A DNA stretch of 64,000 bases from Escherichia coli (GCF_003334255.1 NZ_QOWU01000019.1); one strand, 5' to 3'; positions 48,132 through 50,446 are shown, counted from the stretch's first letter. The notes: generated by a model from the sequence alone, not told the origin. Translations and numbers: made by a program.

Positions 48132-49730
48132 TCAGTATGCGCGCTGGAACAGCCCGATGCCTTCATTGTCATTTGTCGACGTAATTTCATTACACACCAT
48201 CCATGAGCCCGGAACTGAGGATAGTTTGCCGTCAATGCCATCGGTGTTAGCTTTCATATAGTTCCCGCTTGCATCTTTGATTATGGCGCATCGCTTAAGG
48301 CGTGAACCCTGTACAGTTTCTCCTGGCTGATAGGTTTTGTTGAGGTCGGTTACATACGGGGTTAGTGCGGCAATAATGTATGTTCCGATGCTGTAAATTT
48401 CCCCGGGTACCAGCCTTCCGGTTGGCCCTTGTGGTCCCCGTGGTCCGGTTTCACCTGTCGGGCCCTGTGGACCTGCCGGGCCCTGTCTTCCTGTTTCTCC
48501 CTGCGAACCTCGTGGCCCGGTGTTCCCCTGCGGCCCCGTCGGCCCGGCAGGTCCTTGTTGACCCGCTGGCCCCTCGGCCCCCAGTTCCTTCCAGTCCGTC
48601 CATGGACCATTTCCGGTGAAATTACCGTTGACAGCCCTGACAAACTTCCTGATGGGGTTCCATGTAGTGTATTCCTGTTGACAGAAACCCCAGGCTCCCA
48701 TTTTCACGGACAGGTATCCCGCCTGTTCAACGGGGTAGTGCATGGCGGTGGTTGCATCTTTATTGGCCGACTGATAGTAATCCCCGTGGTGTTCTGGTTT
48801 TCCCAGTGTATTGAGATCAACGGTCAGCGCGGTATATTTCGCCTTCTGTGCTCCGCTTTGTGTTGACTGTTGAAGTTGTTGTACGGTCTGGTTTGTGGCA
48901 TTGATTTGTTGCTCCAGTGTTGAGGCTTTCTCACTTGCTGCCTGTGCACTCTGTTTAGCCTGTTCAGCCAGTTTTTCGGCTTCAGTGGCTTTCTGCATGG
49001 TGAGCTGGACTGCCTTTGGTGTTGCAGCGGCGTTTTCGGCGGCGCTGCCCGTTTCGCTGCTCAGCCGGACGATGCCTTTCTGGCTGGTCGTGGCGTCAGT
49101 GACTGAAGATTTTTCATTAATCATTCCTTTCAGCGTTTTGATGGCCTTAGAGGTTGCGGCTGTTTCTTCGCTGTCACTGTCGGTGGCACTGCTCAGTTGC
49201 ACAAATCCCTTTGTGCTTGTGGATGCAGACTGGTGGGTGCCGCTTTTTTCATGTTCTTTGATGGCCTGATCCAGAGCGGCTTTTGTGACCATGACAACTG
49301 ACTGATCCAGTTTAATATTCAGCGCAGAAATATTACTCAGGAGAATAACCATCCTGAATACCTGCTCCCGACCTGAACCTTCCTCCAGCTTCGGTTTGTA
49401 ACCTTCTGCTACGTTGCCAACAGCAATCAGGGCACCTTCATCATCGAATAACCCAATCTCCCTCACCCAGAAGCCGCCCTGGTCAGCAGGAATAACCAGC
49501 TCTGCGGTGACAAAGCTTTCATTCTCCGCATCCTGTGTGATGCTGGAGATATTCCCTTCCCAGACTTTTTTCACCAGTTGTTTTTGCCCTTCTGATGGCT
49601 CCACTTCCTGGCCGTTGCCGTCGCCCACCTGCATCTTTGCCAGGGTGACTTTTTTTCCACCGGGCTTCAGGGCTTCGGCCAGCTTCCGGCGGCCCTCAGT
49701 GGTGATAATGGTTTTGTATTTCTGTGTCAT
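48132..49730 (-). CDS. H: Tail fiber protein gpH with collagen-like Gly-X-Y repeats
   Basis: N-terminus resembles recalled P2 gpH (ITTEG..., [21 protein letters not shown]); central [22 protein letters not shown]... tract. Confidence 0.8.
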
Positions 49731-50446
49731 GGTTCCTCCGGTGCCGGTTTTACGATGGTCGTTGTGCCGTCGTATGTTGTTCCGGCTATACAGATAGCGG
49801 CTTGTGCGGCGCACGGTGACGGTATCTCCGTATCCGGTTTAACCCGGGTTATGTCACTGTCGTAAATCGCGCCAGCACAATAAATTTCTCCTCCGGTAAT
49901 GCAGGGGTTCGGCAGTGTTGCGTCCGGATATACCTGTATGATGTCTCCGCTATGACTCACTGCCCCGGTAAAGACTTCCCCTTTTGCAATGTATGTCAGC
50001 CTCAGTGCTTTCAGGTGACGGCTTACCGGCTTCGCCAGCGCAATCATGCGCTCCATTTCCTGATAGGTCGCCTCTGTCAGGGCTGCATGTGTAACATCGA
50101 TGTTGAGACGAAAACTGCCTGGAGGGTCGCCGTTTTCCCACCACTCTGTAATGCTCAGCAGCGCGCCGAACGGGGCAATAGCTCTTCTCATGGCGCTGAT
50201 GGTCCCCTTATGACGGTGAACCATCCACGACTCGCGTATAACGTCCCGGCGAGTCTCTTCCGTCCATGCCTTATCCCATCTGTCCACTGAAAGCGTCCAT
50301 GCGAGCCATGGCAGCAGTACTTCAGGGCATTCGTCCGCATTCCACAGGGTGTTAAGTTTCACCGGCAGCTGGCTGATTTTTTCCCCGGAGCGATCAACGG
50401 TTTTCAGAAAAACACTGGCAGACGGCGGAAGCACCGTTTTACTCAT
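49727..50446 (-). CDS. I: Baseplate protein gpI (with C-terminal extension)
   Basis: 239 aa; N-terminal 170 aa gpI-like (recalled P2 I is about 176 aa). Confidence 0.75.

Follow-up and report, generated by a model that had tools for sequence, protein, structure and literature searches.

In contractile phages and tailocins, the baseplate wedge protein BW3 (gp7 in T4, PA0619 in the pyocin, gpI in P2) assembles with two copies of BW2 into a (BW2)2-BW3 heterotrimer; receptor-binding proteins are mounted on BW3, which is known to be present at one copy per wedge and to bear the fibres in the pyocin, in phage Milano, and in T4 (PMC10811340). The triplex of the diffocin has one single-copy protein (Tri1), whose C-terminal region is described as the part that 'connects to the tail fiber' and was not resolved (PMC10996793). 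TssG of type VI secretion systems (T6SS), a protein proposed to resemble P2 gpI and T4 gp7, exhibits two loops, each of which anchors one TssK trimer, as observed by cryo-electron microscopy and bacterial two-hybrid assays (BACTH); each loop places three hydrophobic residues into a cavity that is formed, in one TssK trimer, by the N-terminal ~15 residues (PMC6300606). For the Tail_P2_I adaptors of extracellular contractile injection systems (eCIS), AlphaFold-multimer predicts that fibres dock through loops, 'up to four' (PMC12923769). Here, we analysed the gpI of a P2-family prophage lying in 64,000 nucleotides of Escherichia coli chromosome (GCF_003334255.1, NZ_QOWU01000019.1; this whole stretch is hereafter called the window). 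An initial annotation had noted that this gpI carries a C-terminal extension containing two similar units with two cysteines each, and had suggested an added receptor-proximal or metal-binding module affecting host range.

By sequence comparison, the extension consists of two further tandem copies of the terminal unit of gpI itself, and of no foreign domain. P2 gpI (OU784746.1, 175 aa) aligns without gaps to residues 1-174 of the protein, with 49% identity, and stops there; the pyocin homologue PA0619 (177 aa) likewise aligns up to the start of the extension. The extension comprises residues 175-239 (65 aa), and the alignment with P2 gpI gives a difference in length of about 64-65 aa, close to the 60 aa or so of the first estimate. 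When the C-termini of homologues are compared, ordinary gpI proteins are seen to terminate already in a recognisable unit, e.g. ...IQGYLYTGGVMYDGDVITIYPQE. The unit is ~30 aa long, with the core consensus GxxYxGAxxYDGDxxTVYP. All three units of the gpI studied here terminate in V-[YK]-P and are followed by a five-residue tail, APEEP. The coordinates of the units, verified by translation, are the following:

49727-50446, minus strand: the gpI gene with its stop codon; encodes the 239-aa baseplate wedge protein BW3 ('phage tail protein I').
49925-50014, minus strand: unit 0, residues 145-174, the canonical C-terminal unit of every P2-type gpI; aligned with the end of P2 gpI and matched by the one-unit profile.
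49835-49924, minus strand: unit 1, residues 175-204, the first extra copy, with Cys182 (49901-49903) and Cys190 (49877-49879); matched by the one-unit profile.
49745-49834, minus strand: unit 2, residues 205-234, the second extra copy, with Cys212 (49811-49813) and Cys219 (49790-49792); recognised by its similarity to unit 1 and by the one-unit and iterated profiles.

For the one-unit profile, only gpI proteins with a single unit were used (18 distinct sequences, each represented by its 29 C-terminal residues). With a search space of one sequence, it matched gpI at residues 155-174 (E 1.2e-8), at residues 186-202 (E 1.4e-5) and, weakly, at residues 220-230 (E 5.6e-3), while an iterated unit profile matched residues 217-232, in unit 2 (E 4e-4). 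The extension alone scored 17.7 bits against the one-unit profile, a score reached by none of 2000 shuffled sequences (maximum 9.4). The similarity between units 1 and 2 is the most pronounced, with a BLOSUM62 local score of 66 versus 19.5 +/- 4.4 for shuffles (z = 10.6, 0/5000) and 12 identical residues out of 29 in the register compared. Unit 0 is also similar to unit 1 (z = 6.5; the score is attained by one shuffle in 5000). The direct similarity of unit 0 to unit 2 is weak (z = 0.24), and the connection between them runs through unit 1. A search for repeats at the DNA level over 49700-50050 returned short chance matches only, so the duplication is old and does not result from recent slippage. 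The pattern of the units, with alternating hydrophobic residues and glycine-rich turns, suggests a beta-hairpin. The two strings on which the initial annotation relied were both found, at residues 176-198 and 206-227. The added module that it postulated is thus present at the fibre end of gpI, although it is made of copies of gpI's own terminal unit and is not foreign.

The extra length could in principle be an annotation artefact, caused by a wrong start, a wrong stop or a frameshift, a concern raised along with the first description of the extension. Nothing was found in favour of this explanation, and its probability is practically nil. The start ATG of gpI lies in an 8-nt overlap with the stop of gpJ, as in relatives. 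At the other end, in the ATGA at 49727-49730, the TGA stop codon of gpI shares bases with the ATG of the downstream tail-fibre gene, whose ribosome-binding site (GGAGGA, 49734-49739) lies inside the final gpI codons. These overlaps are conserved in relatives on both sides of gpI, and the boundaries of the open reading frame (ORF) are identical to those of RefSeq WP_001537172.1 ('phage tail protein I', 720 nt). As the gene overlaps both gpJ and the fibre gene and RefSeq makes the same call, the extra length does not stem from a miscalled start or stop. At least 1000 public contigs moreover contain the exact 239-aa sequence. Of 5426 complete E. coli genomes, 14 contain the 2.5-kb region around gpI, with 99.6-100% identity; gpI has neither a frameshift nor a stop in these 14 genomes, and the three that were checked encode the identical WP_001537172.1. 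The end of gpI and its two neighbours are as follows:

49727-49744, minus strand: C-terminal tail APEEP and stop codon, read from the sequence as GGCACCGGAGGAACCATGACA; includes the ribosome-binding site of the fibre gene and the stop/start overlap.
50439-51356, minus strand: gpJ (baseplate wedge protein, T4 gp6-like), the upstream partner of gpI; taken from the ORF list, starting at TTG, the RefSeq start ('baseplate assembly protein') being 21 nt further in.
48132-49730, minus strand: tail fibre, gpH-like, 532 aa plus stop, with a P2-type N-terminal 'tail-collar fibre' domain; RefSeq 'phage tail-collar fiber domain-containing protein'.

With regard to family membership, the identification as gpI holds. 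Pfam PF09684 (Tail_P2_I) matches residues 6-142 over its whole model, 1-139 (E 3.4e-47), the NCBIfam equivalog TIGR01634 scores 152.4 bits, far above its cut-off of 30.05, and PHROG 48 ('tail protein') matches with an E-value of 1.5e-77. As the Pfam model ends at about residue 142, the unit array falls outside the family definition. The gene order V-W-J-I-H of the P2-type tail module is present at the locus, in the ORFs as well as in RefSeq, and is the same in relatives, in which gpJ exhibits the Baseplate_J_N/M/C domains. The top Foldseek match of the gpI model is PA0619 of pyocin R2 (6u5b_0; E 1.1e-10, probability 1.00, 149 columns). The TM-scores against 6u5b are low (0.24/0.36), which presumably reflects an extended conformation of the chain within the complex; phmmer connects gpI to 6u5b with an E-value of 1.3e-36. 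The domain concerned is:

50021-50431, minus strand: N-terminal Tail_P2_I domain, residues 6-142 (Pfam match), which builds the wedge with two gpJ copies.

P2 gpI and the 176-177-aa gpI proteins of P2-like E. coli prophages share with the gpI studied here the Pfam/TIGRFAM family, the J-I-H gene order and the type of fibre N-terminus. The difference is that P2 gpI exhibits one C-terminal unit, whereas three are present here, with four cysteines in the extra two. We found no description of a C-terminal repeat of gpI in P2-like phages, nor of a P2 baseplate structure, in the literature searched.

The gpI family comprises 3595 cluster representatives at E <= 1e-3, and units were counted in 267 sequences, i.e. 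the gpI studied here and 266 family proteins, with the iterated unit profile (consensus GPLYVGAAVYDGDTTTVYP). The counts were as follows:

0 units detected: 67 proteins, median length 213 aa.
1 unit detected: 107 proteins, median length 186 aa.
2 units detected: 84 proteins, median length 206 aa.
3 units detected: 8 proteins, median length 232 aa.
4 units detected: 1 protein, median length 266 aa.

These counts are conservative, since P0038 (258 aa) and P0150 (257 aa) show four units by eye. An extension of this kind could have turned out to be standard in the gpI of the P2 family, which would speak against the initial reading. This is the case in part: multi-unit gpI proteins are indeed common, but P2 itself has one unit, and the exact form observed here, with three units and four cysteines, was found in no other of the 267 sampled sequences. 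In P0139, P0163 and P0150, inspection indicates that the units resemble each other more within one protein than across proteins. This likeness within some multi-unit proteins suggests repeated independent expansions.

Other branches of the Tail_P2_I family exhibit other repeats. Different short C-terminal repeats ('...ALVG...' modules) are present in P0174, P0209 and P0253, distinct tandem repeats following the N-terminal domain are also seen in the branches of P0203, P0208, P0265, P0184 and P0170, and in some proteins of 600-700 aa at least five '...LP.PG.PDGSLALVG...' modules are present. This adaptor family may generally have a repeated C-terminus.

The prophage relatives with the same architecture have a gpI of 206-209 aa with two units and 55-61% identity. 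The closest relatives, P0003, P0004 and P0005, belong to this two-unit type and are devoid of unit 2. The single extra unit of P0003 is identical to unit 1 at 16 of 29 positions and to unit 2 at 15 of 29; its first half is unit 1-like and its second half unit 2-like. A P0003-like unit may accordingly have been duplicated in the lineage of the gpI studied here, or one may have been lost in the other lineage. P0001 (206 aa, 99% identical) was considered as a natural two-unit allele and rejected, as its shorter length is due to a TAG stop that replaces GAG at codon 207 in one metagenome scaffold, where the DNA of unit 2 is otherwise preserved. The metagenome scaffold ERZ28620130 (L001, 1330-1680) carries a near-identical locus with TAG at gpI codon 207 and two further substitutions in unit 2. 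In this variant, unit 2 is lost from the product and the fibre start is uncoupled from the gpI stop; the prophage may be in decay, or the assembly may be wrong. In the clustering at 90% identity, the 239-aa gpI was grouped under a 535-aa tail-fibre representative. This looks like an artefact, perhaps arising through fused calls such as the gpI-fibre fusion P0053, and it is probably the reason why the full-length protein is missing among the homologue matches.

With regard to structure, the unit region apparently corresponds to a part of the chain that tends to be unmodelled. In the baseplate structures solved for the pyocin, the diffocin and phiCD508, between 26 and about 84 residues of the gpI equivalent are missing from the model: 151 of 177 residues are modelled in PA0619, 157 of 209 in phiCD508 gp66 and about 148 of 232 in diffocin TRI-1. 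The AlphaFold2 (AF2) model of the gpI monomer, based on a 55-sequence alignment, is confident for residues 1-152, while the predicted local distance difference test score (pLDDT) is <55 for residues 155-239. The low pLDDT from residue 155 onwards is consistent with the lack of an autonomous fold. As these chains are incompletely modelled and the AF2 confidence is low, the unit region looks like a flexible connector that is ordered only on its partner. A fused chain, in which three copies of fibre residues 1-170 and gpI were joined by glycine-serine (GS) linkers (21 paired rows), gave a predicted TM-score (pTM) of 0.28 and units with a pLDDT <40. The structure prediction proposed along with the initial annotation was thus run twice with AF2 and yielded no confident model of the extension.

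R-type pyocin Tri2/PA0619 (6u5b, 6u5k) is the sole close solved relative of this gpI and is the single-copy triplex member that bears the fibre, as is presumed for gpI. It differs by its length of 177 aa, its one unit and its 26 unmodelled residues, and because of the latter its structure is uninformative on the function of the unit. The gpI profile also reaches the C-terminal regions of phiCD508 gp66 (Triplex 2, 209 aa; positions 106-202) and of diffocin TRI-1/CD1372 (232 aa; positions 120-202). The C-terminal parts of both proteins are unmodelled, and that of the diffocin is described as the fibre connection. However, they resemble gpI only very distantly (E 1e-3 to 4e-3) and have different fibres. 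The alignment of the gpI family profile with PDB entry 9gb2 (phiCD508 gp66, 209 aa) extends across the two-unit region of the profile.

Based on these likenesses, gpI would be the single-copy member of a (gpJ)2-gpI wedge triplex, and its C-terminus would act as a flexible tether for the trimeric tail fibre. By analogy with the TssG loops and the eCIS adaptors, one gpI unit would correspond to one fibre-docking hairpin. We consider it fairly probable that the extension represents a copy-number expansion of such hairpins, to three per wedge. The three units would then provide up to three docking sites per wedge for the single downstream fibre protein, where P2 would have one; the outcome could alternatively be a longer tether with greater binding strength for one fibre. 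TssG serves as the working model for one unit per trimer, as it may be likened to the gpI array in having discrete loops that each bind one trimer. The eCIS adaptors (eBAP3/eBAP5) belong to the same Pfam family as gpI, are encoded upstream of the fibre gene, and the prediction of up to four docked fibres agrees with the range of one to four units.

The gpH-like fibre is the presumed partner of the gpI C-terminus. Among 78 IMG/VR loci, one-unit gpI genes are followed by a fibre starting with K[FY][KR]T... in 46 of 46 cases, and two-unit gpI genes by one starting with K[FY][FY]A... in 29 of 32. The unit array thus co-varies with the extreme N-terminus of the fibre.

Several observations weigh against the docking of fibres by each unit. 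The covariation with the fibre is suggestive only, because it tracks lineages and the loci are not independent events. Both AF2 models leave residues 152-239 of gpI at a pLDDT below 40-55, and docking is proposed by analogy. TssG has no C-terminal tandem array; its loops are insertions in its C-terminal domain, and they are likened to the gpI units by analogy and not by sequence (PMC6300606). The eCIS adaptors are from Bacillota and Actinobacteriota and face other fibre N-terminal domains, and their docking of several fibres is itself a prediction (PMC12923769). The window contains a single fibre gene with a matching N-terminal domain, a tblastn search of the whole window having detected no second one, and any extra sites would consequently have to bind the same fibre. 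Four-unit proteins exist, contrary to the version in which there is one unit per chain of one trimer. Finally, no micrograph is known in which a P2-like phage having a multi-unit gpI bears over six fibres.

The extra units could instead be a tolerated duplication that only lengthens the flexible tether, with no added binding site and the same number of fibres. The unstructured appearance of the whole region in AF2 would agree with this, as would the drift of the unit number between one and four in the family without an obvious change in neighbouring genes, and the metagenome scaffold in which TAG at codon 207 drops unit 2 while its DNA is kept. Nevertheless, both extra units retain the hydrophobic pattern, the YD[GS] motif and the final V-K-P. 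The duplication is old, as there is no repeat left at the DNA level, yet no frameshift or stop has arisen in the 14 complete E. coli genomes, and the expansion is recurrent in several lineages. We regard this explanation as unlikely, though it is to be taken seriously.

Another explanation is that the extra units dock a partner other than the fibre, such as the DUF4376 protein, the adjacent wedge, or the esterase with DUF1737, SASA and DUF6645 domains, all three possibilities being very unlikely taken together. The two- or three-unit 'TLPNPC' lineage always has the esterase gene, together with a DUF4376 gene replacing P2 G. Against this, the extra units resemble the canonical unit, which accompanies a K[FY]KT-type fibre, and the four-unit gpI P0038 is found in a prophage without the esterase. 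In addition, the same esterase architecture is that of NanS-p in lambdoid Stx phages, which are not known to have a gpI.

If unit 0 and its two copies do act as docking hairpins, the unit number might set the number of fibre trimers per wedge, with up to 18 fibres here versus 6 in P2 and with the hairpins stapled by disulfides; changes in unit number would then be a simple means by which evolution adjusts how strongly P2-like phages, tailocins and eCIS adsorb. We consider this wider proposal to be distinctly doubtful. The effect on host range suggested initially could be conceived only indirectly, through the mounting of the fibre.

With regard to the cysteines, the extension contains C182/C190 (CX7C) and C212/C219 (CX6C). 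Few cysteines are observed at these places in the family: the extra units of the closest relatives contain one (P0003) or none (P0004, P0005), and the sample comprises 87 distinct extra units, of which 67 are free of cysteine, 16 have one and 4 have two, the two units of the gpI studied here being among these 4. The first cysteines (P-x-P-C) of the two units are in register, and P0003 has this cysteine as well. The second ones are one position off register (IYCAG versus ICIAG), and the second cysteines therefore seem to have been acquired separately in the two units. The four cysteines are a recent lineage-specific feature.

With spacings of CX7C and CX6C, the cysteines could pair across the strands of a hairpin. 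Once the virion has left the cell, disulfides C182-C190 and C212-C219 might staple the first hairpin in both extra units and stiffen the connector; this would supplement the docking of fibres by the units and not replace it. The conservation of the first cysteine in P0003 and the independent gain of the second one, 6-7 residues later, are in line with such a staple, as is the enrichment in cysteine (4.2% of the tail of this gpI versus 1.0% of family tails). A disulfide network that includes BW3 is documented in the baseplate of phage Milano (PMC10811340). However, the bonds are predicted from the sequence only, assembly takes place in the reducing cytoplasm, and the family does not need two-Cys extra units, as only 4 of 87 are of this type. 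Four cysteines per 65 residues could also be due to chance followed by duplication. Overall, the staple is unlikely.

A zinc site formed by the four cysteines is highly improbable, even though two Cys pairs do lie inside 38 residues. The CX7C and CX6C pairs, 21 residues apart, differ from CxxC-type knuckles, the extension is devoid of histidines, and the cysteines are lacking in the closest relatives and in most units of the family. As the closest relatives have one cysteine or none, a conserved metal site is unlikely. No metal-binding family was found among the Pfam, NCBIfam and PHROG matches of gpI. A Cys4 zinc-binding module, which requires conserved, short-spaced Cys/His ligands, was accordingly rejected, and the metal-binding module of the initial annotation is to be abandoned because of the wrong spacing, the absence of histidine and the lack of conservation of the cysteines. 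If the cysteines matter at all, a disulfide staple is most likely, ahead of a metal site.

The genes around gpI exhibit an unusual architecture, which is shared with the relatives: it comprises a DUF1737-SASA-DUF6645 gene, the R-S-V-W-J-I-H genes and a DUF4376 gene, while U and the tape-measure gene are oriented the opposite way. The fibres of relatives exhibit PF12571, Phage_fiber_2 and Collagen domains. Other features of the window are the following:

48380-48680 (approximate), minus strand: collagen-like G-X-Y run in the fibre gene; a Pfam Collagen domain is recorded in the fibre of the relative L083.
47513-48241, minus strand: DUF4376 protein, after the fibre gene, at the place of the P2 G-type tail-fibre assembly protein.
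53769-55739, minus strand: 656-aa protein with DUF1737, SASA (sialate O-acetylesterase-like) and DUF6645 domains, between the lysis genes and gene R.
41873-47477, plus strand: sheath, tube, E, tape-measure and U genes, on the strand opposite to the R-S-V-W-J-I-H-G block (47513-53367, minus strand) and to D/ogr.

The sheath-to-U block is therefore inverted relative to the P2 gene order. The same strand arrangement is observed in the relatives L083 and L084. The DUF1737-SASA-DUF6645 combination, which is the NanS-p esterase architecture of Stx phages, occurs here in a P2-type late region; the esterase gene is also present in the two-unit relatives and is absent from the four-unit prophage L085.

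The gpI studied here is thus a known protein in which the copy number of the terminal unit varies, and not a new metal- or receptor-binding domain. The locus alone is ordinary, as it encodes a known, annotated prophage protein with one repeat more than its nearest relatives. The more interesting by-product is the variable array observed at the level of the family, in an apparently unmodelled region of the baseplate. By analogy with the described systems, the terminal element of gpI probably tethers the tail fibre. As BW3 is the fibre-mounting site in contractile phages, tailocins and eCIS, this junction matters for the engineering of tailocins and of host range. The part of the chain that is unmodelled in pyocin R2, diffocin and phiCD508 is apparently the end that holds the fibre, beyond the end of the Pfam model at about residue 142. 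The missing piece is a repeat, present in one to four copies across the family, which provides a handle on fibre attachment and possibly on the number of fibres per wedge.

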